Origin: an uncultured Clostridia bacterium | GTDB lineage: Bacteria > Bacillota > Clostridia > TANB77 > CAG-508 | Reading direction: 5' to 3' | Assembly: GCA_934169575.1 (NCBI GenBank) | Contig: CAKPOA010000002.1 | Span: forward strand, 46,494-110,493 | DNA length: 64,000 nt | Shown: piece by piece, positions 28,733-45,582 of the stretch | How positions within the stretch are numbered: position 1 is the first letter of the stretch | How the letters are laid out: each line of letters opens with the position of its first letter | Made by a program: the position numbers and the translations under genes | The notes under the pieces: model-generated | The model's database searches: none | The model's input: only the letters and a program-made list of their open reading frames with translations | Told to the model about the DNA's origin: nothing

Positions 28733-28738
28733 CTACAA

Positions 28739-29095
28739 CTATGCCCCATTGTCTTGCTTTGAAATTGATTTTTGCCATCCTATTGAATATTTTAATATAT
28801 CATCTAATTTCTCACCAAATTTTGTGTATCTTTTCATATTTATTATTTCTTTGTCATAACATAAATTTATTAAAAAATCTAATACTTTAATTTTAGCGAT
28901 TATGTCGTTGATATATTCTATTTTATTTTCTTTGGTTATATTTGCTTTATAAGCCAATTCTAGCAAATCGTATGATAAATTTCTTATTCTATTTTTTATT
29001 TCAATATCTTTTTTGGGAAAGTTATTCAAATATTTATCTATATAAATAACTAACTCTCTAATAAAATTTATTACTTTAAATTTTTCTTCTTTCAT
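28739..29095 (-). CDS. avd: DGR accessory variability determinant (four-helix-bundle, 23S rRNA IVS-protein family)
   Basis: 118 aa, a helical pattern typical of Avd (FIRELVIYIDKYLNNFPKK...LLELAYKAN...). Lies immediately 5' of TR. Confidence 0.8.
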   Translation of the reverse strand: MKEEKFKVINFIRELVIYIDKYLNNFPKKDIEIKNRIRNLSYDLLELAYKANITKENKIEYINDIIAKIKVLDFLINLCYDKEIINMKRYTKFGEKLDDILKYSIGWQKSISKQDNGA

Positions 29096-29513: not shown

Positions 29514-29531
29514 AATCTACCCCTAATAATT

Positions 29532-29561
29532 TTCCAAGAAGTCCAAAGGACCTTCTTGGAA
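29532..29561 (-). other. Strong hairpin between the DGR target gene and the accessory genes
   Basis: TTCCAAGAAGTCC-aaa-GGAC(C)TTCTTGGAA, a 13-bp stem with one bulge. No T-run follows on the minus strand. Confidence 0.5.
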
Positions 29562-29612
29562 GTCTTCTTAATTTATTTTGTTATTATTATTTATCCCTGC
29601 AGTCTTATATTT

Positions 29613-31010
29613 TTACTCCGTGATTTGTCCGTATTCTAAACTTTTACCACTAAACGAATTCGGAATTGTCGTTGTCCACTCTTCTTCACTACCAGTTGAA
29701 GAAACGGACAAATCATCAACCGTGACTCCAGATTGTAGATAAACTACAGGGCGCACAGCGAACCAAGCCGCACTGGAATCGCCGTGCGAAATGAACAAGG
29801 CATAGCCGGTGCCAGCAAAGCCTCCAGCGACAACCCCTGGACCGAAATGGCAAAAGTCAGAGCCATACATGTAGACACCAGAAGAAGCAAGCCAGTAAGA
29901 TTTTCCATTCGATTCTCTTTCTGTTCCTCTAAACAACACTTCATATAATTTACTACTTTGTTCAACTGTATCTGCATTTGGATATTGGTACATAAATGCT
30001 GTTCCCTCTACACTATCTCCTGCTTTTTTATTAGTTAATGAAGAATAGGTACTATTTGATGAATATTTTTGTTTTAAATAATTTTCTGGTGCATAATCAT
30101 TTGTTTTATATGTATAACTTTGTCCGAAAGAACCTTGATATGCTGAAATTGGTGTTTTTGATTCATCTGCAGTTTTATATAATTTATTATTTGTTTTATC
30201 CAAAGATAATCCTAATGCTGTATTTATATCTTCGATGCGCATACTTTTTGTTGAATCTGCAAATTTCCCATCATAAATTTTGCAAATGTCATCTAAAACA
30301 TTCTCACTAGTCGCCTCGCCAGCCCAATACCAACCTTCTGCTGAATTTAAATATAGATAAGGGTCTTTTTCCCAATCTTCTCCACTTGACTTCATAACTT
30401 TTTTTATTGGGCTACCTGTTGTTATCATCAATTTTGTTCCTGTTTCATCTAGTCCCAATACTCTCCATGTTGTGTTTGTATCGACATTATATTGTTGTGT
30501 CCCTGTATATCCAGTTTTTGTACTATCCACAGAAACACTTGCAGATGAATTTTTTAAAGTAGAATTATAATTTTTTATATAATCTCCTACATTTATTTCT
30601 TTATCTCTAAATGCTTGCACTAATGTTTTTGCATTTGATATAGAACCAAGCACACTAAAATCTATAGTTATTCCTCCTATTGTTATTACATCATTTTTTT
30701 CTAATGTTGCAACTTCACTATCAGTTAAATTTCCGTCTGCGTGTAACTGAGCAATTACTTCTGCTCTTGTTTGCTTGGTTCCTTCAATATAATTTACACC
30801 AGTATTATTGGATGCAGCCAAAGTTACAGTTTCCTTTACTTTTCCTCCTCTTGTTGCATCTTTTGCTTGTACTGTTCTATTTAAAATTCCGTTATTTCCT
30901 GATAACATTGCTATTGAAATTCCTGCTAAAATTATTAATACGATTATTGTAATAATTAATGCAATTAATGTTATACCTTTTTGTCCACTTTTTTGTTTTG
31001 TTTTTTTCAT
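29613..31010 (-). CDS. DGR variable (target) protein: prepilin-type N-terminus, central domain of unknown function, C-terminal variable C-type-lectin-like region
   Basis: ATG at 31010 follows the RBS AGGGGG. N-terminus MKKTKQKSGQKGITLIALIITIIVLIILAGISIAM. The VR encodes residues WLASSGVYMYGSDFCHFGPGVVAGGFAGTGYALFISHGDSSAAWFAVRPV near the C-terminus. Confidence 0.9.
   Translation of the reverse strand: MKKTKQKSGQKGITLIALIITIIVLIILAGISIAMLSGNNGILNRTVQAKDATRGGKVKETVTLAASNNTGVNYIEGTKQTRAEVIAQLHADGNLTDSEVATLEKNDVITIGGITIDFSVLGSISNAKTLVQAFRDKEINVGDYIKNYNSTLKNSSASVSVDSTKTGYTGTQQYNVDTNTTWRVLGLDETGTKLMITTGSPIKKVMKSSGEDWEKDPYLYLNSAEGWYWAGEATSENVLDDICKIYDGKFADSTKSMRIEDINTALGLSLDKTNNKLYKTADESKTPISAYQGSFGQSYTYKTNDYAPENYLKQKYSSNSTYSSLTNKKAGDSVEGTAFMYQYPNADTVEQSSKLYEVLFRGTERESNGKSYWLASSGVYMYGSDFCHFGPGVVAGGFAGTGYALFISHGDSSAAWFAVRPVVYLQSGVTVDDLSVSSTGSEEEWTTTIPNSFSGKSLEYGQITE
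29744..29894 (-). repeat. DGR variable repeat (VR), with invariant GC-rich 3' end (IMH-like)
   Basis: Counterpart of TR. 14 codons differ from the TR-encoded peptide. The invariant 3' end on the minus strand is GGTTCGCTGTGCGCCCTGTAG. The flanks diverge beyond it (IMH versus IMH* pattern). Confidence 0.95.
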
Positions 31011-31056
31011 ACATTTTCCCCCTTTGATTTTTTGTATTAAAATATTTTTCAAAATA

Positions 31057-31085
31057 ATATTATCATTTATAATTTTATTTTGCAA
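31057..31085 (-). promoter_or_regulatory. Candidate sigma-A promoter of the DGR target gene
   Basis: Minus strand reads TTGCAA (31085..31080), a 17-nt spacer, then TAATAT (31062..31057), about 45 nt upstream of the ATG. Confidence 0.45.
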
Positions 31086-31108
31086 TATCATTTTTTCTAA
31101 AAATATCG

Positions 31109-31494: not shown

Positions 31495-32411
31495 TTATCT
31501 AGCATCATCTCCAGGATCTGTTGAACAAGTTAGAGCTTTATTCTTTTTATTCACTACTATATTATAAATCCTGCCTGGCACATATATCTCTTTCTTTACA
31601 TCATATTGACTTAATAGTGTTGCAATTCTGGGAGCTGATTTTATTATACCCAAAATTTCTTCTGATGTAGTTTCTGAACTTACTGGAATTACTGCTCTTA
31701 GCTTTCCATTAACTTGGATTGGGATATTCTTAGTTCCTCCATTAAGCTCATTTTCATTAACTTTAGGCCACTCTTCTTTATGTACAGATTGCTCTTTTCC
31801 TAAGCTTTGCCATTGTTCTTCAGCATATTCGGTTGTCTTTAAAAACCATTGTTCCATTTTTTTCTTTCAACAGGTGTACCACATCTTTCACATTTACAGT
31901 CAATAACTTGTTCATTTGCTAAAACTGTCTTACAACTGTCGCACCAATTTACTAATGAATTCTTTTTATATGCAAGTCCTTGTTGATATAATTGAGTAAA
32001 TATCCATTGAGTCCATTTATAGTATTCTGGTTTACAAGTTTCTACGGAGTAATCCCAATCGTAGTTCACTCCCATTTCTTCAAGTTGTCTTCTCATAGTT
32101 TCAATATTTTTTTCTGTAGATACTTTAGGAGATATTCCTGTTTTTATTGCATAATTTTCAGCAGGTAATCCAAAAGCATCAAAACCCATTGGATGAAATA
32201 CATTATATCCTTGCATTGATTTATACCTTTAGAATGAATCAGCAGGTGCAAAATTGAACCAATGTCCTAAATGTAAACTTGCTCCTGATGGATATGGAAA
32301 CATCTCCATTGTGTAAAACTTTTCCTTTTTACTTTCATGATTATATTTATACAATCCCTCTTCTTTCCATTTCTCTTGCCATTTTTGATCTATTTGTTTT
32401 GAATAATTCAT
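31495..32411 (-). pseudogene. leuS: Leucyl-tRNA synthetase remnant (nonsense codon, frameshift and large internal deletion)
   Basis: Three ORF pieces. The N-terminus carries the HIGH motif (SLHLGHWFNFAPADSF), then an in-frame TAA, then [26 protein letters not shown] frameshift lies in an A-run at [19 protein letters not shown]. The sequence then joins directly to the extreme C-terminal domain (IPIQVNGKLR...), so roughly the central 500 aa of a normal LeuRS are missing. Confidence 0.88.
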
Positions 32412-32430: not shown

Positions 32431-33486
32431 TTATAATTCATTTTTGCTAGTAAAATTTTTTAACGTTGCAATTTTAGCTTCTTGTGTAATTTCTTTCCAG
32501 CTTTCTCTTAATAAGTTAATATCTATCTTCTCTTTTGATAATTGAACATCTGTATTTTTCAAATAGTTTTTCATACTTAGTGTTCCATCTGGCAATAAAT
32601 ATATTGCTATGCCATCATCACTGCTCTCTCCCCAATACCATATCGCAACTTCTCTACTTTTGTTTTTTAATTCTTTCAATTTTTGTTTTATTGCATCTGC
32701 ATTTGAAACACTTAATTCATTATAATTTTCTGCTCCCCTACCTGATGGTAATAAACTAAACACAAACCATTGCTTTATATTATTCTGTTCCACAAATTTA
32801 TAAATTTCATCCAATTCATTTTCGTTGTATCTATTTAATACAGTAACAATTCTAACATTATCCATATATTTCTTTGCTAATTTTATATTTTCTTTTACCC
32901 TATATAAATTATCTGTTCCTCTCAAATTCGCATATATATCTTTATTCAATGTGTCTAAACTTATTTGTAGTGTTATGCATGATTGAGATATTTGATTAAT
33001 AAGCCTTTCATTTAGTAATATTCCATTAGTTGCTATTGCTGGTTTTACTTTTTCATTTTCAAATAATTTCAAAATATCTTCAATATCTTCTCTTACTAAA
33101 GGTTCTCCTCCTCCAATTATAATTCTCATACAATCCCACTTTAAAATTTCCTTAGTAATTCTTTTTATTTCTTCAAAGTTTAGTTCATTTTTTCCTATTC
33201 CTGAATCATTACAACAAAAACGACATCTCGAATTACATTTATTGGTTATTTGCCAAGATAAACTTATTGGTGCAGATAAGTCTAACTTATTTATATCTGA
33301 AAAATCTCCTAATAAAAAGGCATTTTTACTCTTGTATGGATTATTTGACAGTAATTCTTCTTTATAACGTTCTATATTTTCTTCTTTTTTGATGCTCCAC
33401 ATTCTATCATATTTTATATCTTGTAATACCATTCCCCATTGTTCTTCTCTAGCAACCAATCGATTATCTATCACCTTCATCATCAT
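32431..33486 (-). CDS. Radical SAM enzyme with ~85-aa N-terminal extension
   Basis: CNSRCRFC is a CX3CX2C cluster motif, IIGGGEPL is the SAM-binding GGE motif, and LLPSGRG is also present. There is no Cys-rich SPASM/twitch C-terminus. The start overlaps the upstream kinase gene by 23 nt. Confidence 0.85.
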   Translation of the reverse strand: MMMKVIDNRLVAREEQWGMVLQDIKYDRMWSIKKEENIERYKEELLSNNPYKSKNAFLLGDFSDINKLDLSAPISLSWQITNKCNSRCRFCCNDSGIGKNELNFEEIKRITKEILKWDCMRIIIGGGEPLVREDIEDILKLFENEKVKPAIATNGILLNERLINQISQSCITLQISLDTLNKDIYANLRGTDNLYRVKENIKLAKKYMDNVRIVTVLNRYNENELDEIYKFVEQNNIKQWFVFSLLPSGRGAENYNELSVSNADAIKQKLKELKNKSREVAIWYWGESSDDGIAIYLLPDGTLSMKNYLKNTDVQLSKEKIDINLLRESWKEITQEAKIATLKNFTSKNEL

Positions 33487-34246
33487 CTATTCCTCTTTCT
33501 TTTTTTTTATTTGCTTGCCTTTGTCTAATAGATACTAATGCCTGATACGCATTAGGATAACTTCCATCTCTATCTTGTTTTTGATTATATACTAATATAG
33601 GTAAATCCTCAGCAGTTTGACCTCTTATAAGAACTTTTATGTTTTCTATATCAGAAGAACTACTCATAATACCTACACTCCTTTTAAAACCTTCATCTGC
33701 TTCATCAATAAAGCTCTCACTTGTTTTTCTATAAAAATTCCTCATTGTCCTTCTTTGTTCTTGCTCTCTTAATAAAGCTGAAACCTTACTTTGCTCATTA
33801 GATACAGCTAATGCATATACTTCTATATCAAAACCCTGAGCCTTTGCTCTATCAATTACTACTTGTTTCAAATACTCATATATGCGCATTGTTCCTATAT
33901 GAATAAAACTTATTTTATTTTCCAAACAATATTCTAGCATTTCTTTTTCTATTCTTATTGAAAATTTATTTGTACTTTGCACAAAGTCAGCATTATCATC
34001 TTCTATTTCTTTTAATCTTGGATGATACATCCTATACTTATCCATATCTATTGATACAAATGAAACATTTGGATAATCTTTCATTATCTTCTTAGGTAGT
34101 GCCGATTTTCCTGATGCTGGTTGTCCTGCTGCAAAAATCAATCTAGGGCTTTTTTCTGATTGTGCTTGTCCAACGTAATCTCTTTTTACTTTTTCAAATG
34201 CTTCTTGATATTCATCTTCTGTATAATCATAAGATTTTGTTTCCAT
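33464..34246 (-). CDS. Zeta-toxin-family P-loop kinase
   Basis: Walker A AAGQPASGKSALPK in a context typical of zeta toxin/AAA_33 phosphotransferases. 260 aa with an acidic/basic tail. No epsilon-like antitoxin gene lies upstream. Confidence 0.65.
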   Translation of the reverse strand: METKSYDYTEDEYQEAFEKVKRDYVGQAQSEKSPRLIFAAGQPASGKSALPKKIMKDYPNVSFVSIDMDKYRMYHPRLKEIEDDNADFVQSTNKFSIRIEKEMLEYCLENKISFIHIGTMRIYEYLKQVVIDRAKAQGFDIEVYALAVSNEQSKVSALLREQEQRRTMRNFYRKTSESFIDEADEGFKRSVGIMSSSSDIENIKVLIRGQTAEDLPILVYNQKQDRDGSYPNAYQALVSIRQRQANKKKERGIDDDEGDR

Positions 34247-34321
34247 CTAAAAAACTCCTTTCTAATTTATTGACTTTTTCTCTATATTGGAGTATTATAT
34301 ACTCATATGGAGATGATATAT

Positions 34322-35059
34322 ATGAATTTACAAAATAAAACTGCAATTATTACTGGTGCAAGCCGTGGTATCGGTTTGGCTACATGTCAAAGATTTATTA
34401 ATGAGAATATTGAAAATCTTATTATGATAGGGGCTAATAGCCAAAATTTGTCGTTAGCAAAAAATCAATTAAATTATAACAATATATTTACATACCAATG
34501 TGATTTATCAGATAAAAAATCTATTGATAATACTTTTGACAGAATTTTATCTAAATTTACTCATATTGACATTCTTATAAATAATGCTGGTATAATCGAT
34601 GACTCCTCTTTTGTTGAAATGACAGACATTCAAATGAAACATGTATTAGATGTGAATTTTTATGGTTCTTTTTATTGTATTAAAAAGATATTGCCTATCA
34701 TGATTATGCAAAACTATGGTAAAATAGTTAATGTTTCTTCAACATCAAAGTTTGGTACCGTTAATAAATCTAATTATGCGGCATCTAAAGCAGCATTAGA
34801 TGCATTAACAAGAACCGTATCTAAAGAAGTAGCCGAATACAATATAACTATTAATTCTGTTGCTCCTACACTAATTGACACTGATATGTTAAAGTCTATC
34901 CCTACAGATACTTTATCTAAACTAGTTAATAATTCGCCTATAAAAAGATTAGGGAAACCAGAAGAAATTGCATCTATTATATATTTTCTTTCTTCTGATG
35001 ATTCATCTTACATTACAGGAGAAACATTAATTGCTTCTGGTGGCTTATTTACTATCTAA
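34322..35059 (+). CDS. Short-chain dehydrogenase/reductase (FabG-like)
   Basis: TGASRGIG (TGxxxGxG), NNAG and the YAASKAA catalytic YxxxK. It is the only plus-strand gene of the cluster. Its 3' end overlaps the convergent methyltransferase by 15 nt. Confidence 0.9.
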   Translation: MNLQNKTAIITGASRGIGLATCQRFINENIENLIMIGANSQNLSLAKNQLNYNNIFTYQCDLSDKKSIDNTFDRILSKFTHIDILINNAGIIDDSSFVEMTDIQMKHVLDVNFYGSFYCIKKILPIMIMQNYGKIVNVSSTSKFGTVNKSNYAASKAALDALTRTVSKEVAEYNITINSVAPTLIDTDMLKSIPTDTLSKLVNNSPIKRLGKPEEIASIIYFLSSDDSSYITGETLIASGGLFTI

Positions 35060-35797
35060 TTTTTGCAATATAAAAATTTGCTTTGGAGATTGGAGATTAA
35101 ATTCATTGTAATTATAATCGCCAATTTTTTCTTTTAATATAAATTCACTGTTATTTATTAATTCTTCTAATTGCCCAGGAAAATATTGTCTCATAAAAGT
35201 ATTACTTTCTATATATAAACTTAATTTTTCATTAACATATATATTAGTTAAATAATTAATTCTGGTTGTTTTATCATATTTTCTTATTTCATATAAATCA
35301 ATATTATCTTTATAATACTCACTATAAAAACTATATCTATACTCTTTTGTTTCTTCTATATTTAAAAATCTCATATTAGGATTAAATATATCTATAATCA
35401 ACAATCCTTTATTTCTTAACACATTATAACATGATTTTAAGAAATTGTCTACATCTTCGTCATTTTTCAAATGTTGTAGAGAGTTAAAACCACATATTAC
35501 TATATCAAACATACCTAATTTTTCTTTTTCCAGTTTTCTCATATCTCCCCAAATATATTGTATATTTTCATTCTTTGTTTTTGCAATATCTAACATATCT
35601 GTAGAATAATCTAATCCTATGTACTCTTTTACATTTTCACATATTTCTTTTGATAATCTTCCTGTACCACAAGCTACTTCTAATACTCTCATATCACTCT
35701 TTAAATATTTGTTATAAAATTTTATATCTTCGGTTTGTACAACTTTGTTCATGTCATCATAAAATATATGATCACCATAGTATGTATTACATTTCAT
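35045..35797 (-). CDS. Class I SAM-dependent methyltransferase
   Basis: Motif I VLEVACGTGRL and motif post-I GLDYS. Confidence 0.85.
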   Translation of the reverse strand: MKCNTYYGDHIFYDDMNKVVQTEDIKFYNKYLKSDMRVLEVACGTGRLSKEICENVKEYIGLDYSTDMLDIAKTKNENIQYIWGDMRKLEKEKLGMFDIVICGFNSLQHLKNDEDVDNFLKSCYNVLRNKGLLIIDIFNPNMRFLNIEETKEYRYSFYSEYYKDNIDLYEIRKYDKTTRINYLTNIYVNEKLSLYIESNTFMRQYFPGQLEELINNSEFILKEKIGDYNYNEFNLQSPKQIFILQKLDSK

Positions 35798-35815
35798 ATA
35801 AATTCTCCTTTTCTA

Positions 35816-36691
35816 TTATAAGTTTAAAAAGTTTTGTATATTTTCATATAATATTTTGTTTTTTATTTCTTTTTTAATATTTAGTGCATTTATCAAATTT
35901 ATTTCATCAATTAGATTATAGTTCCACCAGCATGAGAAAGGATAACTTGAACCAAATACTATTTTATCTGACATTCCTTTATTATTTACCAAATCTTCTA
36001 ATATTTGTGTTGCTTCCATATTTGAATATTGAAAGGCATCATAAGCTGGAAATACATTTTGATTGTTTTCAAACCATCTTAAATGTCCACTTATACCACT
36101 TGTTTCTATTACCACATTATCCATTTGTTTTGCCATTTCTAATGCCTTTACTGAAGCTCTTAATAAATGTCCCATTATGAATTTCTTGTTTGGAAATGCT
36201 CTTGCAAAATTTATTGCATCTTGTGGTCCATAATTTCCTAATTTTTGTACTCTTCCAATATCTTTTTCATTCAATGCAGCAGTGTGTATATAAATGAAAA
36301 AATCATTATTTTTTGAAAATTCTATAAACTCTTTATTTGCCTCTATTTTTCCAACATCAATATTGCATAATATAGGCCAAATTACAATCCCTGCTTTGTT
36401 ACATTTTTTTAAATATCTCTCAACATCTAAAAAGCATTCATGATAATTTATATTTAATGCAAACACTGGAATTAAATTATTATTTTTTTTATATAACTCA
36501 TATATCGTTTTGTTTTCTTCCGTATATTTTCCATCTTTTGAACTTGGAAAAGGATATATTAATGCTTTATTATCTATTCCATAATTTATTTTATTGAATT
36601 CTTCTAAATATTCTTTATGTGGTCTTTGTGGTAAATTTTCTGATAGCCAATAATCTGTTCCCACTAAATAATGAGCATCTATAAACTTCAT
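35816..36691 (-). CDS. Amidohydrolase-family (TIM-barrel metal-dependent hydrolase) protein
   Basis: MKFIDAHYLVG is the N-terminal metal-binding strand. IYIHTA, MGHLL and the overall length are typical of amidohydrolase_2. I take the start as ATG 36691. Confidence 0.65.
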   Translation of the reverse strand: MKFIDAHYLVGTDYWLSENLPQRPHKEYLEEFNKINYGIDNKALIYPFPSSKDGKYTEENKTIYELYKKNNNLIPVFALNINYHECFLDVERYLKKCNKAGIVIWPILCNIDVGKIEANKEFIEFSKNNDFFIYIHTAALNEKDIGRVQKLGNYGPQDAINFARAFPNKKFIMGHLLRASVKALEMAKQMDNVVIETSGISGHLRWFENNQNVFPAYDAFQYSNMEATQILEDLVNNKGMSDKIVFGSSYPFSCWWNYNLIDEINLINALNIKKEIKNKILYENIQNFLNL

Positions 36692-36692
36692 T

Positions 36693-37856
36693 TTACACAA
36701 CCTTTCCTTTACTATTAAATTCACTTACAGTTCCATATTTTGCTTCTCGTATATCATCTAATTTTTTATCATTTAATTTATAATAATATATATCTAAATT
36801 CTCTTTTGCATTTTTTATAATTTCTTTTATACCTGATAAATCATGTATTATTTGTTTCCCATCATTTATAGAATATACTTTGAAACTTTCTATTCCATCT
36901 TTTATATTTTGAACTATAATAATCCTTACACCTTTTCTTAAATATTGATTCTTAATTGTTTTTAATTTTTTTACTCCTAAATTAGCATCAAAATAAATTC
37001 TATTCTTTCTCTCATCTTCTTGTATTAAATTTCGGATCATAGCACTTTTAATTTGTTTATTATAAATTATCGCTATATCCTTATTTTCATATATAGAAGG
37101 TAATCTCATACCAAAATTATCCATGTTGTTATATGCTAAATATGCAAAAATCTTTTGACTATATCCTATATCAAATATATATTTATTTTTAAATTCTTTG
37201 GAAACATTAAAACTATCTAATAATTCATCATCTAATAGGCTACATTGTAAAATAGTTTGAGTTTCTCCTTTTTCATTGATAGCACTTACCATATACACTT
37301 TTTCAGAATATCCTTTTACTCCATCATATTCTAAGACAACAACTGGTAAGTTTATACTTTTACAAAATTTTTTCATTTTTTCAACAACATATTTAATAGC
37401 CTCATTTTTATTCATTTTATCTATTGCTAAATTAAATTGTAATAGAGGTGATATATAGTAGTCTCTACTCATTGGTATTTGCTTTGAATCCAAAAGCCTT
37501 ATCATATAATAATAACTCAATAATGCACATTTATTTTCTTTATCCATTTTTTCTAAATTATATGGTAATGCATCTGTAATATACATATACTCTTCATTAT
37601 CCTCATCCTTAAAAAATGCTATGGTAGAATCATATTTTTGTATTCTATCTTTATATTTGTTTGAAAATTTATTAATTTTTTGAATTTCTTTAGGATAATT
37701 TATTTCTATATTGAAATCCTTAGAAAAACACTTTAAAAATGCTTCTATAGTAATATTTTGCATTTTTAATCCGTCTTCTGTCCATAATGGAAATCCCTTT
37801 GCAATACCATCAGGATAAACTAAATTCAACATTCTTAAAGCTTCTTTATAATCCAT
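36693..37856 (-). CDS. Degenerate class IIa aminoacyl-tRNA-synthetase-like protein (ProRS/ThrRS-like core + anticodon-binding-like domain)
   Basis: GFPLWTEDGLKMQNITIEAF parallels ProRS G..iw..G..i...i. NEKGETQTILQCSLLDDELLDSFNV parallels dGkalQ.gTsH.LGqnFsk.F.i. IGYSQKIFAYLAYNNMDNFGMRLPSIYENKDIAIIY parallels wGvStRliga.i..HgDd.GLvlPp.iAP.qvviiP. Canonical catalytic residues are replaced (TSH to CSL, motif-3 Arg to Lys). Confidence 0.55.
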   Translation of the reverse strand: MDYKEALRMLNLVYPDGIAKGFPLWTEDGLKMQNITIEAFLKCFSKDFNIEINYPKEIQKINKFSNKYKDRIQKYDSTIAFFKDEDNEEYMYITDALPYNLEKMDKENKCALLSYYYMIRLLDSKQIPMSRDYYISPLLQFNLAIDKMNKNEAIKYVVEKMKKFCKSINLPVVVLEYDGVKGYSEKVYMVSAINEKGETQTILQCSLLDDELLDSFNVSKEFKNKYIFDIGYSQKIFAYLAYNNMDNFGMRLPSIYENKDIAIIYNKQIKSAMIRNLIQEDERKNRIYFDANLGVKKLKTIKNQYLRKGVRIIIVQNIKDGIESFKVYSINDGKQIIHDLSGIKEIIKNAKENLDIYYYKLNDKKLDDIREAKYGTVSEFNSKGKVV

Positions 37857-38295
37857 CTTTCATTTCCTCTATTTCTATAACTATTTTTATATATTGTTCT
37901 TCACTTTTAATTTCATATTTATGTTGTTCTATAAATTCCTTTATATTTTTTATTTTATCTTTATTATATATTTGAATAAATATTAAGTTGGTTTCTTTTT
38001 TCTTATATAAACCTTTTATACAAGTAAAATAATCTTTTTTCTTTTCCAAACACCCATTTATTAAATTAAATGTTGTATTAAATGTAGCCATACTATATAA
38101 TTTGTTTTTGAAAATCTTCTTTTCATAAAAATATATGTTGGAATTTTCAGGTACAATTGGTGGAATTTCTATATACAAAAATTCCATTTTTTGTAGCTGT
38201 TCTAATATATTAGAAACATTTTCTTTAAATTTATACTTAAACATATTTTCATATTCTTTCAAATTTCTAATCTCCCTTAAATTATTAAAATTCAA
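37846..38295 (-). CDS. Hypothetical protein (149 aa), translationally coupled on both sides
   Basis: No confident family. MEFLYIEIPPIVPE weakly recalls class II aaRS motif 1 (G..ei.tP..e). Overlaps both neighbours by 11 nt. Confidence 0.4.
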   Translation of the reverse strand: MNFNNLREIRNLKEYENMFKYKFKENVSNILEQLQKMEFLYIEIPPIVPENSNIYFYEKKIFKNKLYSMATFNTTFNLINGCLEKKKDYFTCIKGLYKKKETNLIFIQIYNKDKIKNIKEFIEQHKYEIKSEEQYIKIVIEIEEMKDGL

Positions 38296-39253
38296 CTCTA
38301 AATCTAATATTTTCGCTACATTCTATTTCAGCAGTAGCACCTATTGGTATTGTTATTTTTGGATTAGTATGTCCTAAGTCCACATTATACATAATAGGAA
38401 ATTCGTCTTCTTTAAAAAATTCATTTAAAAAATCATTAATAACTATATTATTATCATCTTCGACAAACTTTCCTATAATTAGTCCCTTAATATTTTTGAA
38501 AATTCCTCTCAGTCTTAGAGCTTGCATAAACGAATCAAATTCTCCCATTGAAATATTTACATCCTCTAAAAACAAAATTTTATTATCAAATACTTCTATT
38601 GGTAAATATTCCGTTCCTAATATAGTTAGTATGCTAGATAAATTTCCTCCTATTATTTTTGCTTTTGCTTTTCCTTTTTTATTTACTTTCCAAACACAAT
38701 TGCTATAATCTTTCTGTTTTACTACTGGATTTATTTCTTCTTGCTTCCAATCTATGAATTCTTTAATTTCATAATTGGGTACTTTATAATCAATACATCG
38801 ATTATTTAACAATTCATTCAAACAGTTCCAAGTATATTCATAAGGTTGTGGGTACTCGCATATTTCTGGTAAAAATGTTGGTCCATGAAAAACGATTTTT
38901 TTAGTTTTTACATATATAGCTAAAAGCAAACATGTTATATCGCTATATCCACAAAATATTTTATTGCTTTTGGAGATTTTTTCATAATCCAGCTTATCAA
39001 TTAATTGATTTGAATTATACCCACCTATACTAGCCATAATAACATCAATATTTTCATTATCTAATGCCATATATATATCTTCAATTCGTTCAACAACTGT
39101 TCCTGAATAATATGATATTTTTTTTGAGGCGTTTTTTTCAAAATTCACATTATATCCACATTTATTAAGAAACTTACATCCTCTTTTAGCTCTATTTGGA
39201 TAGTCTATTAAATAACTACTTGCAGGCGAAATTATTGAAAATCCTTTTATCAT
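38285..39253 (-). CDS. S66 LD-carboxypeptidase / MccF-like serine peptidase
   Basis: Nucleophile motif FCGYSDITCLL, C-terminal DLGHTNP (catalytic His) and N-terminal IISPAS. Confidence 0.85.
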   Translation of the reverse strand: MIKGFSIISPASSYLIDYPNRAKRGCKFLNKCGYNVNFEKNASKKISYYSGTVVERIEDIYMALDNENIDVIMASIGGYNSNQLIDKLDYEKISKSNKIFCGYSDITCLLLAIYVKTKKIVFHGPTFLPEICEYPQPYEYTWNCLNELLNNRCIDYKVPNYEIKEFIDWKQEEINPVVKQKDYSNCVWKVNKKGKAKAKIIGGNLSSILTILGTEYLPIEVFDNKILFLEDVNISMGEFDSFMQALRLRGIFKNIKGLIIGKFVEDDNNIVINDFLNEFFKEDEFPIMYNVDLGHTNPKITIPIGATAEIECSENIRFRVEF

Positions 39254-39265
39254 TTAATCACCCCA

Positions 39266-40117
39266 TTACTTTCCTATTAATGAACTATGGTATAATTCAG
39301 GATCATTAAATATATCTGCTTCTTTTTTCCTTAATATAAATATAGTAAATCCCATATGGCTATTATTCTCATTAAATAAATGCATATAATCATAATAGAC
39401 TTTCTCTAAAACATTTAAGCTTTCTTTTGACAAACTTTTTAAATGTTCCCTTGACAATATATTCTTACAAAATTCATTTATTTCACTATCAGTACACTTA
39501 TTGAACTTAAAATCAATTTCATCAAAAATTTCATCTTCATCTCTAACAAAGAATTTTTTCCAGTCATTTTTATATAATACAGATATATTTACTTGTATAG
39601 CTTTTCTTACATCGTTTACTAATTTTTCACTTGGTGTCTCTAAATAATACATTGGTACAGCTACCAAATATCCATTTGGTTTTAATACTCTCCAATATTC
39701 TTTCAATGCATTTTCCCTATCGCTAACTAAAGAGGTAACATTTCCTGCAAATACTACATCAAAAGTTTTGTCAGGAAATTTCATATTTGTTGCATCATCT
39801 AACATAAATTTTGCTTTATTTAATTCAAATCTGTTTATTCTCTCTTGAGCCGTTTTTAGGCTCATTTCATTTATGTCAATTCCTACCACTTCGCAATTTA
39901 ATAGTCTACTAAATTCTAGTGCTGAATGTCCTGTACTTGTACCTATATCAAGTATTTTACTATTATTATTTAACATTAATTTTTCTGCTACAGTTCTTAT
40001 TGTATTTAATCCTCCTGGTGTTCTATTCGTTTCCCTCACTAATCCAATAATTTCATTATAACTCATTTCTTGTATATCTTTAGGTGTTATATTTTCTATT
40101 TTTTTCATTTCAATCAT
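39266..40117 (-). CDS. Class I SAM-dependent methyltransferase
   Basis: Motif I ILDIGTSTGHSALEF, then GIDINE and FDVVFAGNV. Confidence 0.85.
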   Translation of the reverse strand: MIEMKKIENITPKDIQEMSYNEIIGLVRETNRTPGGLNTIRTVAEKLMLNNNSKILDIGTSTGHSALEFSRLLNCEVVGIDINEMSLKTAQERINRFELNKAKFMLDDATNMKFPDKTFDVVFAGNVTSLVSDRENALKEYWRVLKPNGYLVAVPMYYLETPSEKLVNDVRKAIQVNISVLYKNDWKKFFVRDEDEIFDEIDFKFNKCTDSEINEFCKNILSREHLKSLSKESLNVLEKVYYDYMHLFNENNSHMGFTIFILRKKEADIFNDPELYHSSLIGK

Positions 40118-40126
40118 TCCTTTCTT

Positions 40127-41143
40127 TTATGGTATTATGTCTTGTCCCAAAAATCTTGGCAAAATTTGGCAATCTCTTATATCATCTTTCTTAGTTAACC
40201 ACAGTATGAATCTTTCTACTCCCATTCCAAAGCCTGACGTTTGCATTGGATACTCATCCTTCATTTCTATATACCATTTATACTCATTTTCTGATACTTG
40301 ATGTAATTTAAGAGCTTCTCTCACTTCATCACCAGTACTATGTCTTTCTCCAGCTCCTACCGTTTCTCCAATTCCTATTAATAAATCTGCATTATTAGCA
40401 TATCTTTTATCAATATTTGTACTTTGATAGAACGGAACTGCTTTTATATCAAAATGTGTTATCCATACACATCCATTAAAATAATTTATTAATGCTCTTT
40501 CTCCTTCTTTAGTAATATTTCTAAATCCTAACTTATTATATTCAAAATATTTTTCATCATTTTTCAAAATATTAATTGCTTCTTCAAATGTAACCTTTGG
40601 GATTTCCTCAAGATTTATAAATTTATGTATGTGTTCACTTGTTCCTGCTATATCTATTATTTCCTTTTCATATTCCTTTAAGATATTTTTAGACAAATAT
40701 TTTAAATATTCTTCTACTAACTGCATAATATCTTCTAATTTTCCACATATCTCTGCTTCACTATGATAAAATTGACTTAAATGTCTTTTATCTTCGCTTT
40801 CTCCACGGAATGATGGCATAATATACCATACACCATTTTCAAAAAATCTGCATCCATATTCCAATGCAAATTGCATAGAATCCGCTAAATAAGTATCACG
40901 TCCACCTAATTTAATTTTTACAGGTATTGAATCACTCCCTAATCCCATTGGACTAGATATCGAACCTGTTGTAACAGGTAAGTGCATTGTTTTTATATTT
41001 TTTTCAATATAAAATAAATTTGTGTACTTAGATATTAGATTATCAATTTCTACTAATCTCTTATACCACTCGTCATTAATTGCATTTATAAAATGTCTTT
41101 GTGGAACTTTCCATAATTTTTTTGGTTCAATTAGTTCTTTCAT
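40127..41143 (-). CDS. Stand-alone class II aaRS catalytic core (AsnRS/AspRS/AsnA-like), no anticodon-binding domain
   Basis: Motif 2 IMPSFRGESEDKRHLSQFYHSEAEI and motif 3 SGFGMGVERFILWL. Only 338 aa and begins directly with the catalytic domain. RBS AAGGAG. Confidence 0.8.
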   Translation of the reverse strand: MKELIEPKKLWKVPQRHFINAINDEWYKRLVEIDNLISKYTNLFYIEKNIKTMHLPVTTGSISSPMGLGSDSIPVKIKLGGRDTYLADSMQFALEYGCRFFENGVWYIMPSFRGESEDKRHLSQFYHSEAEICGKLEDIMQLVEEYLKYLSKNILKEYEKEIIDIAGTSEHIHKFINLEEIPKVTFEEAINILKNDEKYFEYNKLGFRNITKEGERALINYFNGCVWITHFDIKAVPFYQSTNIDKRYANNADLLIGIGETVGAGERHSTGDEVREALKLHQVSENEYKWYIEMKDEYPMQTSGFGMGVERFILWLTKKDDIRDCQILPRFLGQDIIP

Positions 41144-41199
41144 ATCTCGCTCCTTCTTTTAACTACAATTATTTTTCATTTTTGTTATATAAACATTTT

Positions 41200-42311
41200 T
41201 CACATATTAATTATTTTTTCCCAACTTAAACTCTCTTTTCCAAAATGTCCATAATTTGTTGTTTGTTTATAAATTGGTTTTCGTAACTCCAAATATTCAA
41301 TAATACCTTTAGGTGTTAAATCGAATCTATTCTTAATTTTCTTAATGATTTCATCTTCTGGTAGTTGATTAGTCCCGAAAGTATTTATATATAGACATTG
41401 GCTCTTTCATACCTATTGCATAAGATATTTGTAGTTCACATTTATTTGCATACCTATTTGCCACTACATTCTTTGCAATATGCCTCATCATATATGCAAC
41501 ACTTCTATCAACTTTGCTTGCATCTTTTCCTGAAAAAGCTCCTCCTCCATGTCTAGCATATCCACCATATGTATCTACAATAATCTTTCTACCTGTTAAC
41601 CCTGTATCTCCTAGTGGTCCTCCTATTATAAAACTTCCTGTAGGATTAATATAAATATTTGTATTTTTATCTAAATATTCTTCTGGTATAGTTCTTTTGA
41701 TAACTTTTTCTATTATATCTTTTTTCATCATCTCAATATCTGTATCTCTCTCATATTGATTTGATATTAGAATTGTCTCTATTCGCTTAGGTTTATCACT
41801 TTCATATTCAACTGTAACTTGTGTTTTTCCATATGGTCTCAAATATGCTATTTCGTTTGTTTTTCTTACCTCTGCTAGTTTATTTGATAATTTATGTGCC
41901 ATCACTATTGCAAATGGCATATAAGATTCTGTTTCATTTGTAGCATATCCAAACATTATTCCTTGATCTCCTGCTCCGTCCTGTATCTACTCCTAATGCA
42001 ATATCAGAACTCTGTTTTGTGATACTTACATCTACTTTACAAGTATCAGGATTAATATCAAGTTCTTCATTTCCATATCCTACATCTTTAATAGCTTATC
42101 TTGCAATTTTTTCAATATCAACTATACCTTTACTCGTAACTTCGCTAGAAATTACTATTTTGTTTTTAGACACAAATGTTTCAATCGCAACTCTTGAATC
42201 AGTGTCTTGCTTTAAATACTCATCTAATAAAGAATCAGATATGTAATCGCATAATTTGTCTGGATGACCTTCTGTAACACTTTCTGATGTAAAGTAATAA
42301 TTTTTTAGCAT
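41200..42311 (-). pseudogene. metK: S-adenosylmethionine synthetase, inactivated (one in-frame TAA and two frameshifts)
   Basis: N-terminus [16 protein letters not shown], then IAR-TAA-AIKDVGY (stop at about 42096), then a +1 shift just before [12 protein letters not shown] (about 41975). The middle part carries GGGAFSGKD. There is a shift in a TATATATA run at about 41395. The C-terminus YGHFGKE is readable in a third frame and ends at 41200. Confidence 0.88.
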
Positions 42312-42333
42312 TTTTCTCCTTCATTTCATTTTA

Positions 42334-42368
42334 GTATAAAAAAGAACAAAGTTTTAATTACTTTGTTC
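42334..42368 (-). terminator. Rho-independent terminator overlapping the end of the 29-codon sORF
   Basis: Minus strand reads GAACAAAG-taattaaaa-CTTTGTTC followed by TTTTTTAT. The sORF stop codon sits in the loop. Confidence 0.7.
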
Positions 42369-42447
42369 CACAAAAAGGCATAACAATGCTATAAAATTTT
42401 CCACATTTATTTTGTTGTTTATTTACTAATACATTTATTTTGTTCAT
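42358..42447 (-). CDS. Small ORF, 29 aa: MNKINVLVNKQQNKCGKFYSIVMPFCGTK (candidate precursor or leader peptide)
   Basis: Not in the ORF track because it is under 60 aa. A strong RBS AAGGAGG lies 6-7 nt upstream of the ATG. It has its own near-consensus extended -10 promoter and its own terminator. It sits directly upstream of metK' and the aaRS-like operon. Confidence 0.55.
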   Translation of the reverse strand: MNKINVLVNKQQNKCGKFYSIVMPFCGTK

Positions 42448-42481
42448 AGCATTTTCCTCCTTTTTCTACATCAATATCTAA

Positions 42482-42511
42482 ATTGTATCACATTTTTTCG
42501 CCATTTGTCAA
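42482..42511 (-). promoter_or_regulatory. Sigma-A promoter driving the sORF (and, by read-through, possibly the operon)
   Basis: Minus strand reads TTGACA (42511..42506), an 18-nt spacer, then TGaTACAAT (extended -10, 42490..42482). Confidence 0.6.
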
Positions 42512-42594
42512 TGTTTTATTTATTTTTTGGCATGTATATGTGTCAATGATGTGAAACAAAGTTTTATAAAAAATTTGTAGTATCACTGAATATT

Positions 42595-42899: not shown

Positions 42900-44970
42900 G
42901 GTTACTTTTTTTGATATACAAATAATAATATGATATATTCTGAAAAAAATAAAAGGAGTAATCATATGAAAAAATATAAAGAAATGAAAGGTCAATTAGA
43001 AATAATGAAAACTTTAGGTATAAAACCAAATTTTAGTGAATTAGAAAGAACTTATGGAATTAATAGACATACCATAAAAAAATATTATGAAGGATATGAA
43101 GGAAGCTCACATATAAGAAATAAACCATCTAAAATAGATCCATATTATGAAGAAATACATAATAAAATAAAACTTGCAGGTGTTAATGTAATGAGCTTGT
43201 ATCAATACTTTTATGAAAGGGATAATGAAATAGGAACATATTCAAATTTTAAAAAATATTTAAAAAAGCACAATTTAAAACCAATAAAAAATATTGAAGT
43301 GCATCCAAGATATGAAACAGAAGCAGGAGAACAAATGCAATTTGATTGGAAAGAAGATTTAAAAATGATCAGCAAGCATGGAGAATTGTTTGAATTTAAT
43401 ATTTTTTCTGCTACTTTAGGATTCTCAAGATTACATGATTTTGTCTATACAAAAACAAAAACTAGAGAAGATTTAGAAAGATGTTTAATATCTACATTTA
43501 AATATATAGGTGGAGTTCCAAAGAAACTATTAACAGATAATATGAGAGCAGTTGCAGATATAAGTGATAATAAAACAAAAGTTAATAAAGAGTTTAGTCA
43601 ATTTGTAAAAGATATGGGAACTACTATAAAACTTTGTAAGCCATATTCTCCAGAAACTAAAGGAAAAGATGAAACAGCTAATAAATTTATGAATTGGTTA
43701 ATTCCATATAATCATGAATTTGAAGATGAAAGAGAATTATTGGAAATAACCACCAAAATAAGAAATAAAGTAAATGCAACAGCAAATCAAACAACTAATA
43801 TGCAACCAATATTGTTATACAAAAAGGAAAAAGAATATCTGTTAGAATTACCAAGTATGCATGTTATAAATTCATACCTAATAGATGTAGAAAAATCAAA
43901 AGTAACTAATGATTCATTGATTTACTACAAAGGTCAAAGATATTCTGTTTCCCCTAAATATATTGGACAATTTGTTAAAGCCAAACAAATTGATAATATA
44001 CTATATATATCACAATAAAGAATTAATAGCAACACATGAAATAGATAAAAAATTATTCAATTATACAAAAGAGCATTATTCAGAATGTTTAAAGATGACA
44101 ATGCCAGATAAGAATGATGATGAAATAGAAAAATTGACACAAAAAAATTTGCAAAATTTTGATAAATTGCTTAATAATAAAAATTAAAAGAAAGTGAGAT
44201 AAATGATATGATATATAATGAGGTTATAAATAATTTACAAAAACTAAAATTAGATAAAATGAGTACATATTTATCAACATATTTAGATGAAATAAATAAA
44301 AATAATATTTCATTTATAGATGCTATGTATGAATTAACAAATAAAGAAATAGAATTCAAAGAACAAAGAGCTTCTGAATTTAATATAAAAGTAGCAGGAT
44401 TTCCATTTAAAAGAACATTAAATGAATTTGATTTTGACTTTCAACCAAGCATAAATAAAAGAGAAATTATGGATTTGGCTACATTGCGATTTATAGAAGA
44501 AAAAAAGAATATTCTTCTTGTTGGTTCAAGTGGTGTAGGTAAAACACATATAGCAACAGCAATAGGGATTGAAGCAGCAAAAAAAAGAATAAGTACTATT
44601 TTATAGGTTGTCATGATTTGATAACTAAACTAAATATAGCACATCAAGAAAATCGACTCAAGGAAGCATTAAAAACTTTTAATAAGTATAAATTATTAAT
44701 AATAGATGAAATTGGATATTTACCAGTAGATAAAAACGGAGCTAATTTATTATTTCAATTAATAGCAAAAAGATATGAAAAAAGTTCTACAATAATAACT
44801 ACAAACCAAGCATTTTCTAAATGGGGTGAACTATTTAATGATAATATTTTAGCTAATGAAATATTAGATAGATTATTACATCATTCTTATGTTTTTAATA
44901 TAACAGGAGAATCATATAGAATTAAAGATAAAATTTCTAATATAGAAAATATTAATAATTCTAGTAGGAG
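42900..44970 (+). mobile_element. IS21-family insertion sequence (istA-istB), both genes frameshifted; ends not resolved
   Basis: Two-gene istA/istB organisation with diagnostic motifs. I could not identify convincing terminal inverted repeats, so the boundaries are approximate. Confidence 0.65.
42966..44187 (+). pseudogene. istA: IS21-family transposase IstA, frameshifted in a (TA)n run near 44000
   Basis: N-terminal HTH, DDE core (MQFDWKED...LLTDNMRAV...ETKGKDE). The ORF breaks at ...QIDNILYI/YHNKELIATHEI within CTATATATATC. Confidence 0.8.
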
Positions 44971-44986
44971 AATATATTTAAATTAA
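44208..44986 (+). pseudogene. istB: IS21-family helper ATPase IstB, frameshifted in a poly-A run near 44580
   Basis: Walker A VGSSGVGKTHIA, Walker B LLIIDEIGY and the C-terminus LLHHSYVFNITGESYR. The break occurs at GCAAAAAAAAGAATAAG. Confidence 0.8.
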
Positions 44987-45582
44987 TACTTTATCATTTC
45001 TGAGAGACAGTCTTGGAAAAACTTAATTTACATTCTAATATATTTAAATTAATACCCATTTTTTTCTACAAGCTTAATTCCAAAAGCAACATTTACATTC
45101 TAATATATTTAAATTAATACAGAACGTGAAAAAGAAATAATAAATATGTATGCAAAAATTTACATTCTAATATATTTAAATTAATACCTTGTAAAAGAGT
45201 AGTTATCTACACCTTGATTATCAATTTACATTCTAATATATTTAAATTAATACAGGACTAATTAGCTCTTGAAATACAGAGCTAATTAAATTTACATTCT
45301 AATATATTTAAATTAATACGATTAGGACTGCTTGTGAAAAATTAAATACATATGATTTACATTCTAATATATTTAAATTAATACCATTGTATTATTTGAC
45401 CAAGTATTAACTGTTGATGATATTTACATTCTAATATATTTAAATTAATACTTAATTAATTCTGGACTTGCTTTATCTAAACTATATTTACATTCTAATA
45501 TATTTAAATTAATACTTTATCAGTTACTATTACTTTTACATTCCAAGAATATATTTACATTCTAATATATTTAAATTAATAC
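44971..45582 (-). CRISPR. CRISPR array: 9 full 30-bp repeats plus one truncated/degenerate terminal repeat, 9 spacers of 34-37 bp
   Basis: The plus-strand repeat ATTTACATTCTAATATATTTAAATTAATAC occurs at 45026, 45091, 45158, 45224, 45290, 45355, 45422, 45486 and 45553. On the minus strand it reads GTATTAATTTAAATATATTAGAATGTAAAT and ends in ATGTAAAT like clostridial I-B repeats. The 19-nt partial repeat lies at 44971..44989. Confidence 0.97.

Follow-up and report, generated by a model that had tools for sequence, protein, structure and literature searches.

Agrocin 84, the product of the agn genes carried by plasmid pAgK84 of Rhizobium rhizogenes K84, is a 3′-deoxyarabinosyl-adenine nucleotide with a 5′ N-acyl phosphoramidate of leucine-like 2,3-dihydroxy-4-methylpentanamide, and its processed form, TM84, is a leucyl-adenylate mimic that inhibits leucyl-tRNA synthetase (LeuRS) (PMC6429109, PMC4392301, PMC8323819). 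Among the agn proteins, AgnA has been proposed to join the pentanamide precursor to adenosine monophosphate via a phosphoramide bond, AgnB2 is an experimentally established immunity LeuRS that is ~1000-fold less sensitive to TM84, and agrocin 84 production has been reported to depend on S-adenosylmethionine (SAM) (PMC8323819). Clusters of this kind were earlier known only from Ensifer sp. ENS09 and from Actinobacteria (PMC8323819). Searches of open-access full text and bioRxiv returned no agn-like clusters in Firmicutes or Clostridia and no solved agn pathway beyond the 2021 review. Here we describe a ten-gene operon from an uncultured Clostridia bacterium, located in a stretch of 64,000 nucleotides of contig CAKPOA010000002.1 (hereafter the window, to which all coordinates refer unless another locus is named). 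The operon is a homologue of the agn cluster, and we consider it quite probable that clusters of its type direct the synthesis of a LeuRS-inhibiting nucleotide antibiotic resembling TM84.

A Clostridial operon homologous to the agrocin 84 cluster

The comparison was made between the annotated agn region of pAgK84 and the ten operon proteins, which are numbered W1–W10 from the asparaginyl-tRNA synthetase (AsnRS)-like gene through the radical SAM gene, using all-against-all BLASTP. The first gene (40127..41143; this and all other operon genes are on the minus strand unless noted) encodes W1, a stand-alone class II core of the AsnRS/AsnA type with 338 amino acids (aa). W1 matches the Pfam tRNA-synt_2 family (1e-36) but lacks an anticodon-binding domain, and alignment to AsnRS 1x54, which is also its top match in the PDB (1.6e-26), shows motifs 2 (FRGE) and 3 (GFGMGVER) to be intact. 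With respect to agn, tblastn against the PLSDB plasmids and BLASTP match W1 to AgnA of pAgK84, with 39% identity over 99% of the query (E 3e-89). The adjoining gene, separated by a gap of 9 nt, encodes the class I SAM methyltransferase W2 (39266..40117, 283 aa; Pfam Methyltransf_11/25/31), which is 51% identical to AgnB1 (E 9e-90). Thus, a truncated AsnRS of the AgnA type is followed directly by a methyltransferase of the AgnB1 type in both clusters.

A housekeeping identity for W1, either as AsnA or as the archaeal AS-AR enzyme, was considered and rejected because the NCBIfam equivalog cutoffs are not reached. Specifically, W1 scores 297/322 and 264/389 against the 'asparagine synthetase A' models NF005053 and NF005055. 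AgnA also stays under these cutoffs (191 and 199) and ranks the sub-threshold models in the same order, and all of the cluster relatives described below behave likewise, so that the PGAP name 'asparagine synthetase A' is no evidence for a housekeeping role. The AgnA family extends beyond clusters of the present kind, as proteins ~53% identical to W1 are encoded in two small plasmid clusters that have no AgnC1 homologue. One of these, on Bacillus pseudomycoides pBTZ_2 (L009, 4428-12254), places an AgnA-family gene beside genes for a class I methyltransferase, an ATP-grasp enzyme, a TauD fragment and adenosylhomocysteinase; the other, on a Pantoea agglomerans plasmid (L010, 9728-12239), encodes an AgnA-family protein fused to a GNAT domain and then an MFS transporter. 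These two clusters suggest a wider use of an AgnA (plus methyltransferase) module.

The third protein, W3 (38285..39253, 322 aa; Pfam Peptidase_S66 and S66C), is an S66 serine peptidase of the MccF type. Its best PDB matches are MccF from Bacillus anthracis (1.9e-46) and Escherichia coli (6e-45), each as one full-length alignment, and matches to structures of the LdcA type are split alignments at 1e-20 or weaker. W3 keeps the triad motifs GYSD, LED and GHT, and the agn protein annotated as 'MccF-like', AgnC5, is 24% identical (E 2e-36). As judged from these comparisons, W3 groups with the MccF enzymes that hydrolyse aminoacyl-nucleotides and away from LdcA. Assignment as the murein LD-carboxypeptidase LdcA was rejected, given that the NCBIfam cutoff is not reached (NF008424, 126/378) and that MccF structures are far closer.

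The fifth protein, W5 (36693..37856, 387 aa), has no sequence match in Pfam, NCBIfam, PADLOC or the PDB, and was identified by predicted structure and profile comparison. An AlphaFold2 model built from 21 homologues (predicted local distance difference test score, pLDDT, 84.4; predicted TM score 0.84) was matched by Foldseek to prolyl-tRNA synthetase (ProRS) of the archaeal/eukaryote type over ~400 columns spanning the catalytic and anticodon-binding domains (E 2e-19, TM 0.70-0.75). This class IIa fold agrees with the remote ProRS similarity already reported for AgnC1 (PMC8323819). Direct comparison of W5 with AgnC1 gave 17% identity (E 1e-8, BLASTP) and an hhalign E of 1e-5 over 250 columns. 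Relatives of W5 are few: a word-indexed search of 5.8 billion proteins gave 27 matches, and an exhaustive hidden Markov model search of 1.84 billion representatives with the family profile gave only 53 at E <= 1e-3. The profile built from Clostridial sequences nonetheless recovers relatives of AgnC1 that share 37-44% full-length identity with it, such as P0053 (E 8.7e-15, 39% identical to AgnC1), which establishes the homology of the Clostridial proteins with AgnC1.

Across the AgnC1 superfamily, eight residues are invariant (alignment A4), including R120 and D229-x-G231. By inspection of the sequence, we read R120 as the class II motif 2 Arg and D229-x-G231 as a remnant of motif 3, and the family resembles a conserved enzyme more than a decayed aminoacyl-tRNA synthetase (aaRS). 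The sequence-only reading, a model-made annotation of this DNA that preceded our analysis, had called W5 'degenerate ProRS-like'; the ProRS fold is upheld here, and the word 'degenerate' understates the protein. With respect to the C-terminus, AgnC1 itself ends in ...FY without a Cys-rich segment (alignment A4; L008 19714-20949), whereas most of its relatives of ~400-420 aa in A4 have a C-terminal Cys-rich (CxxC...CxxC) segment in addition. The Clostridial members stop earlier, without the Cys-rich segment and terminal Tyr of most proteobacterial and actinobacterial-type members. A Zn domain and a terminal Tyr are hallmarks of archaeal-type ProRS.

Directly upstream of W5 lies the gene for a small conserved protein, W4 (37846..38295), in the position of agnC0, an unannotated 420-bp ORF before agnC1 (PMC8323819). 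The 149-aa open reading frame (ORF), whose product the sequence-only reading called unknown, is present and matches no family (Pfam, NCBIfam, PADLOC), but the protein probably starts at 38262 and has 138 aa, as in its homologues. Only nine close homologues of W4 were found, all of them within clusters of this kind. Comparison of W4 with the AsnRS-like and ProRS-like proteins by hhalign was negative, and its AlphaFold model (pLDDT 45) was too poor to use. By eye, a segment G[FI]xxIExPPIvP gives a tentative impression of class II motif 1.

The remaining genes encode accessory enzymes. W6 (35816..36724, 302 aa; Pfam Amidohydro_2, 2.5e-10) resembles the amidohydrolase AgnC4, with 27% identity over 297 aa (E 3e-41). 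W7 (35045..35797, 250 aa; Pfam Methyltransf_25/11) is a second class I SAM methyltransferase (MT2) in the same length class as AgnC3 (249 aa). W8 (34307..35059, plus strand, 250 aa; Pfam adh_short_C2, 2e-57) is a short-chain dehydrogenase/reductase (SDR), W9 (33464..34246, 260 aa; Pfam Zeta_toxin, 2.5e-30) is a P-loop kinase of the zeta-toxin family whose PDB match to PezT reaches 2e-11, and W10 (32431..33486, 351 aa; Pfam Radical_SAM, 2e-27) is a radical SAM enzyme that has one CxxxCxxC cluster and is extended by 75 aa at its N-terminus. W10 stays under every NCBIfam cutoff, including those for MftC (107/265) and viperin (NF038283, 82/180), and its 88 bits against the PADLOC profile for prokaryotic viperins (pVip) are no better than generic matches to MoaA, NirJ and MftC; identification as a pVip was rejected on these grounds. 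Searches of plasmids with the kinase and the radical SAM enzyme (tblastn) gave no informative close relatives.

Taken together, the ten ORFs were confirmed at the coordinates that the sequence-only reading had given, and its packed junctions and family assignments were borne out by the ORF check, Pfam, NCBIfam and, for W5, the predicted structure. Intervals along the minus-strand series W1 to W7 are +9, +12, −11, −11, −32 and +18 nt, and 23 nt are common to the kinase and radical SAM genes. The sole gene on the plus strand, that of the SDR, converges on the 3′ end of the MT2 gene with a 15-nt overlap and diverges from the kinase gene, whose start is 60 nt away. That reading had proposed a pathway for an aminoacyl-nucleotide or aaRS-targeting compound, which the present results sharpen to LeuRS as the probable target and agrocin 84/TM84 as the model. 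None of the refuting outcomes that it had named came about: the genes are co-conserved in other loci, W1 stays under the AsnA cutoffs as AgnA does, and W3 sides with MccF against LdcA. AgnB2 and MccF were among its precedents, although the homology of the whole operon to agn went unrecognized. Its description of the locus as undescribed-looking and of no known architecture no longer applies, as the genes fit agn, and AgnC1 and agnC0 have already been discussed (PMC8323819).

Three architectures with a common core and a dedicated LeuRS

The same gene set was found in other contigs at 30-97% protein identity, confirming the co-occurrence that the sequence-only reading had singled out as a check, and the core recurs in several independent metagenomic loci, some from metagenome-assembled genomes (MAGs), in three arrangements. 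Type A comprises the window, L011, L001-3 and, in part, L015/16, and is defined by the ten genes of the operon, with order and orientation conserved. L011, from the MAG 'Clostridiales bacterium UBA8271', is 92% identical to the window at the nucleotide level, and L001-3 are 71-81% identical at the amino acid level; the inverted orientation of the SDR gene is kept in L001 and L011. Type B (L004/L012; L013, from a chicken-gut MAG; and L005-7, from human gut including Hadza) carries genes for AgnA-like, AgnB1-like, S66, PNP_UDP_1 (a nucleoside phosphorylase), SDR, small, AgnC1-like and LeuRS proteins. Type C (L017/18) reads metK (SAM synthetase), GNAT, LuxE, LuxC, AgnA-like, MFS, AgnB1-like, small protein, LeuRS, AgnC1-like, S66 and MT2.

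The invariant core of all three types consists of the AgnA-like, AgnB1-like, S66, small and AgnC1-like proteins. The small gene stays within the cluster throughout and, in types A and B, directly precedes the gene for the AgnC1-like protein. In L011 (3959-4375), its 5′ end is broken by stop codons to leave a 113-aa ORF in an otherwise intact cluster, so that either an N-terminal truncation is tolerated or this copy is damaged. The amidohydrolase W6 and the kinase W9 were found only in type A.

A second shared feature is LeuRS: wherever the locus is of sufficient length, a gene for it is present within or beside the cluster. Full-length LeuRS genes lie within or end the clusters of L001-3, L004, L011, L013 and L017, and in L001-3 and L011 an intact LeuRS of 821-832 aa follows the ten type A genes. 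In the window, a leuS pseudogene (31495..32411, minus strand) occupies this place, and in both the window and L011 the gene begins 19 nt beyond the stop codon of the radical SAM gene. Two LeuRS genes, only 54% identical, are found on the L004 contig, one at the cluster end and the other beside secA and prfB in a setting of the housekeeping type, and the cluster LeuRSs of L001, L004, L011 and L013 share 69-76% mutual identity. On these sequence comparisons, the arrangement is the classic pattern of a self-resistance gene. The decay of leuS and metK beside the window operon had been noted in the sequence-only reading and is confirmed here; its view of leuS as merely an extra copy in the flank is not, given that the related clusters end with this gene in intact form.

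Flanking genes vary among loci, with AhpC/AraC/TrwB-like, HTH/secA, pth/RNase G, NUDIX/amidase and phage-tail genes all represented, and the cluster thus behaves as a mobile island. It is also rare: among 185,579 species-representative genomes, the AgnC1-like gene of the Clostridial clade occurs in four, all MAGs of uncultured Clostridia. Two incomplete type A loci, L015 and L016 (~97.6% identical to the window), both end inside the AgnC1-like gene at the equivalent of window position 37546, a shared break that may reflect either origin in the same sample or structural variation at the strain level. L014 (MAG UBA3678, ~10000-10650), from one of the four genomes, retains no more than the C-terminal third of an AgnC1-like gene along with a small piece of the amidohydrolase gene, and this Clostridiales locus looks like the remnant of a decayed type A cluster.

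Proposed pathway

The product that we envisage would be an adenosine-type nucleotide whose 5′-phosphate carries a leucine-like acyl group, probably as an N-acyl phosphoramidate, and which would mimic leucyl-adenylate and block LeuRS. In terms of assembly, the acyl-N-P-adenosine linkage would be formed by the AgnA-type and AgnC1-type enzymes, both of which would use ATP to activate an acyl group. The small upstream protein is probably a partner of the AgnC1-type enzyme, and the AgnB1-type methyltransferase would work with both aaRS-like enzymes. The MccF-type hydrolase would either destroy product that builds up in the producer, as an immunity function, or process an intermediate, and the dedicated LeuRS would keep the producer's translation running. 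The hosts are read as anaerobic Clostridia on the basis of a Spo0A-like gene in the window, and the accessory enzymes of type A, namely the amidohydrolase, MT2, the SDR, the zeta kinase and the radical SAM enzyme, may modify the leucine-like acid, the sugar or both by oxygen-independent steps. Some zeta-family kinases show 3′-OH specificity; this, together with the sub-threshold likeness of W10 to viperins, leads us to speculate that the kinase, radical SAM enzyme and SDR act in 3′-deoxygenation. The intact metK that heads the type C cluster fits the SAM dependence of agrocin 84 production.

Several observations weigh against a TM84-like assignment. The agn pathway is itself unsolved (PMC8323819), with the installation of the phosphoramidate still unknown as of 2025 (PMC12596934), and enzyme roles are therefore not transferable step by step. 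In tblastn searches against pAgK84, AgnC2, AgnC6 (an Fe/2-oxoglutarate-type dioxygenase), AgnD1/D2, AgnE, AgnF and the exporter AgnG had no counterpart in the window, and the W9 kinase had no match in the plasmid. Some of the correspondences are weak, namely those of W4 with AgnC0 (hhalign E 0.0015, probability 17%), of W7 with its top agn match AgnC3 (28% over 112 aa, E 3e-10) and of W8 with its top match AgnD3 (32% over 245 aa, E 7e-36), the last two lying in large generic families. W10 matches the NirJ-like AgnC7 in its core only (25% over 158 aa), and AgnC7 has six C-terminal Cys residues where W10 has none; from their sequences, we do not call the two orthologues. Given this difference in architecture and a zeta kinase that has no agn counterpart, the product cannot be agrocin 84 itself. 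Among the relatives, the LeuRS genes of L005/L006 lie ~4.4 kb away in divergent orientation beyond insertion sequence (IS) elements, and the L005 copy is 37-41% identical to the other cluster LeuRSs, which leaves its link to the cluster uncertain. In the window, leuS is interrupted by a stop at codon 61 and has lost ~1.58 kb internally (residues ~186-724), and a Pfam scan of the ten proteins showed no transporter or exporter in the cluster. With leuS dead and no exporter, active production by the window copy is doubtful.

State of the window copy and alternative explanations

The lesions in the window can be traced by comparison with L011. The leuS remnant jumps from residue 185 to residue 725 of the 832-aa L011 LeuRS; its N-terminal piece is still 93.5% identical to the L011 protein, and the inactivation is accordingly recent. 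Against AgnB2, the remnants show 44% and 35% identity. The metK pseudogene (41200..42311, minus strand), which lies directly 5′ of the operon in the same orientation, is broken into three ORF pieces in three frames (42096-42311, 41369-41956 and 41200-41292), the middle one matching Pfam S-AdoMet_synt_M and S-AdoMet_synt_C. In L011 and L015, the equivalent of window 41306-42178, which is most of this remnant, has been independently deleted. The segment at 42178-42520, with the metK 5′ end and a promoter-like site, is only 77% identical to L011 524-864 and L015 6563-6903, in contrast to 92-98% for the adjoining cluster, and this contrast in sequence identity hints at recombination at the left border.

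With both the immunity leuS and metK dead, the window copy has probably been recently disabled or silenced, and the alternative that it is a non-functional relic, whose ORFs have simply not yet decayed, has in our estimation a little less than an even chance of being correct. The two independent lesions in leuS, the division of metK over three frames, the absence of an exporter and the IS21 element that adjoins the cluster all fit a relic, and the L014 fragment attests that decay does occur in this family. Moreover, with an inactivation as recent as the 93.5% identity implies, intact neighbouring ORFs are uninformative. Set against this, none of the ten biosynthetic ORFs is shortened at a genomic G+C content of ~25%, at which stops arise easily. 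The ratio of non-synonymous to synonymous substitution rates (dN/dS) relative to L011 is 0.08-0.21 (dS 0.15-0.49) for nine of the ten genes, the small gene having been left out on account of the stop codons in the L011 copy. These values indicate purifying selection for most of the divergence between the window and L011, a history that mostly precedes the lesions. The loss of leuS could also be compensated for by the intact S66 enzyme, as an MccF-type immunity factor, or by a resistant housekeeping LeuRS.

The roles of the S66 enzyme and the cluster LeuRS admit a different interpretation, in which both are biosynthetic, rather than purely protective, within an otherwise identical pathway. By this route, the AsnRS-like enzyme and the methyltransferase would start from Asn/Asp and make an N-P-linked adenylate similar to processed microcin C, the MccF-type enzyme would remove the amino acid to leave adenosine 5′-phosphoramidate, and the ProRS-fold enzyme, or the leucyl-adenylate of the dedicated LeuRS, would acylate the nitrogen with leucine or an analogue. 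Such a scheme accords with the presence of the S66 gene in the invariant core of all three architectures, even where a dedicated LeuRS provides immunity, and with its position inside the biosynthetic agnC operon of pAgK84. It is consistent as well with type B, which is without all of the candidate hydroxy-acid-making enzymes and suggests that leucine itself is used. In the biosynthesis of the Campylobacter O-methyl phosphoramidate (MeOPN), which provides an analogy, the phosphoramidate nitrogen comes from the Gln amide and hydrolytic release follows. MccF cleaves exactly the acyl-N(P) carboxamide bond, and a seryl-adenylate made by seryl-tRNA synthetase (SerRS) is the acyl donor in albomycin biosynthesis (PMC8323819). 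Nonetheless, the route is built entirely on inference, MccF homologues are established immunity enzymes and AgnB2 is experimentally an immunity determinant. A biosynthetic LeuRS is in addition a poor fit to the window, which has lost leuS with the other genes intact, unless the housekeeping LeuRS substitutes. We thus regard this alternative as distinctly unlikely. An account in which the locus encodes no antibiotic pathway is far less probable still, and we give it hardly any weight. The locus would then be a chance juxtaposition of housekeeping-type genes (AsnA, LdcA, LeuRS and MetK), in keeping with the PGAP name of the AgnA-type proteins, or a defence island linked to a diversity-generating retroelement (DGR) and CRISPR-Cas, in keeping with its position between such loci and with a radical SAM enzyme that has sub-threshold similarity to prokaryotic viperins and is encoded beside a kinase. 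Synteny is, however, retained at 30-97% identity in unrelated flanking contexts, the AsnA and LdcA cutoffs are not reached and the S66 enzyme is of the MccF type. As to defence, which the sequence-only reading had thought plausible from the neighbours, those neighbours are absent from the other loci, the score against the viperin model falls well short (82/180) and PADLOC gave no system-specific matches, only generic methyltransferase and radical SAM ones. The modified-peptide product that the same reading had entertained also loses ground, as W10 has no SPASM domain or auxiliary Cys cluster; a precursor-peptide gene was not searched for.

Returning to the agrocin-like pathway, its boldest form, which we put forward tentatively and judge unlikely as a whole, is that gut Clostridia harbour an unrecognised agrocin-like family in which the five-gene core, accompanied by a dedicated LeuRS gene, is the minimal machinery for an N-acyl phosphoramidate that mimics leucyl-adenylate. 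The MccF-type enzyme would unmask adenosine 5′-phosphoramidate from an Asn-derived intermediate, and the anaerobe-specific kinase, radical SAM enzyme and SDR would carry out oxygen-independent tailoring of the sugar (such as 3′-deoxygenation) or of the acyl group.

Surroundings of the operon in the window

Upstream of the operon, a promoter-like site at 42482..42511 on the minus strand (TTGACA-18-TACAAT with an extended TG, matching the consensus at 11/12 positions) lies 5′ of the metK remnant and, from its sequence, may be the operon promoter. The promoter/terminator scan found this one strong promoter-like site, and neither promoter-like sites nor terminators were more numerous in the region than shuffled sequence would lead one to expect. 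A scan of the window against Rfam gave no riboswitch, T-box or other RNA.

The left end of the cluster adjoins an IS21-family element (42930-44986) in which istA is intact (362 aa) and istB is divided between two ORFs (44208-44606 and 44618-44986), a split that probably means inactivation. A CRISPR-like repeat array with a 64-65-nt period follows at 44971-45582, and minus-strand ORFs that the sequence-only reading called cas genes continue to 53926. At the other end, just downstream of the leuS remnant, a DGR spans 27442-31091. It comprises a reverse transcriptase gene (27442-28416), genes for a bAvd-like accessory protein (28739-29095) and a small protein resembling MutS domain I (29076-29513), and a gene for a putative target protein of 492 aa (29613-31091), whose N-terminus we tentatively read as prepilin-like.

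Implications and comparison with known systems

As far as the window itself is concerned, a cluster of a known kind accounts for the operon, and this copy of it has lost its immunity gene. More broadly, a second and phylogenetically distant agn-like set, with three architectures around a small core, marks the genes that are likely to be essential. The operons are compact (8-11 genes) and suited to heterologous reconstitution, through which the question of agrocin biosynthesis becomes testable. LeuRS is a validated drug target, and if the boldest form of the pathway given above is correct, the gut microbiome would be a source of new LeuRS inhibitors and the route to N-P bond formation in agrocin 84 could be resolved. 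The clusters also suggest that gut anaerobes may compete through nucleotide antibiotics directed at LeuRS.

In relation to other nucleotide antibiotics, the albomycin (abm) cluster is similar in that it directs the synthesis of a nucleoside-based aaRS inhibitor and carries a duplicated, resistant aaRS gene, the SerRS AbmK; it differs in making a thionucleoside joined to a siderophore assembled by a nonribosomal peptide synthetase, and methyltransferases are the only enzyme families in common. The microcin C (mcc) system is closer. It shares the warhead proposed for the Clostridial clusters, an N-acyl phosphoramidate that mimics an aminoacyl-adenylate, and a cluster-encoded S66 hydrolase of the MccF type, and the GNAT and MFS genes of the type C relatives are reminiscent of MccE and MccC. 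Domain searches of the ten window proteins (Pfam, NCBIfam) revealed no ThiF/E1-like (MccB) domain; no search was made for an mcc-like precursor-peptide gene. Unlike in mcc, formation of the N-P bond would fall to class II aaRS-like enzymes, and the implied target is LeuRS rather than aspartyl-tRNA synthetase.

The putative agn-like clusters of Ensifer sp. ENS09 and Actinobacteria resemble the Clostridial ones in carrying homologues of AgnC1 and agnC0 beside agn-like genes, together with a cluster aaRS presumed to confer immunity; their accessory gene sets differ, and the RefSeq BLASTP survey that described them did not find the Clostridial members (PMC8323819). Most of the actinobacterial clusters carry a methionyl-tRNA synthetase (MetRS), which implies MetRS as the target, whereas the Clostridial clusters carry LeuRS, as does agn.

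Finally, in comparison with agn itself, the Clostridial cluster is set apart by its host, a low-G+C anaerobe from gut metagenomes instead of a plant-associated alphaproteobacterium, and by protein identities of only 17-51%. The window cluster is without the agnD/E/F genes for the N6 glucofuranosyl-phosphoryl uptake moiety, such that any delivery would differ from the opine mimicry of agrocin 84. Its radical SAM enzyme has no equivalent of the C-terminal Cys-rich domain of AgnC7, and the zeta-family kinase is an addition. What the two clusters have in common, beyond the AgnA–AgnB1 pair, is a small ORF placed before a ProRS-fold protein of the AgnC1 type, an AgnC4-type amidohydrolase, an MccF-like S66 enzyme, SAM-dependent enzymes with a link to SAM supply, an SDR and a cluster-encoded LeuRS of the AgnB2 type, which is a pseudogene in the window and intact in its relatives.

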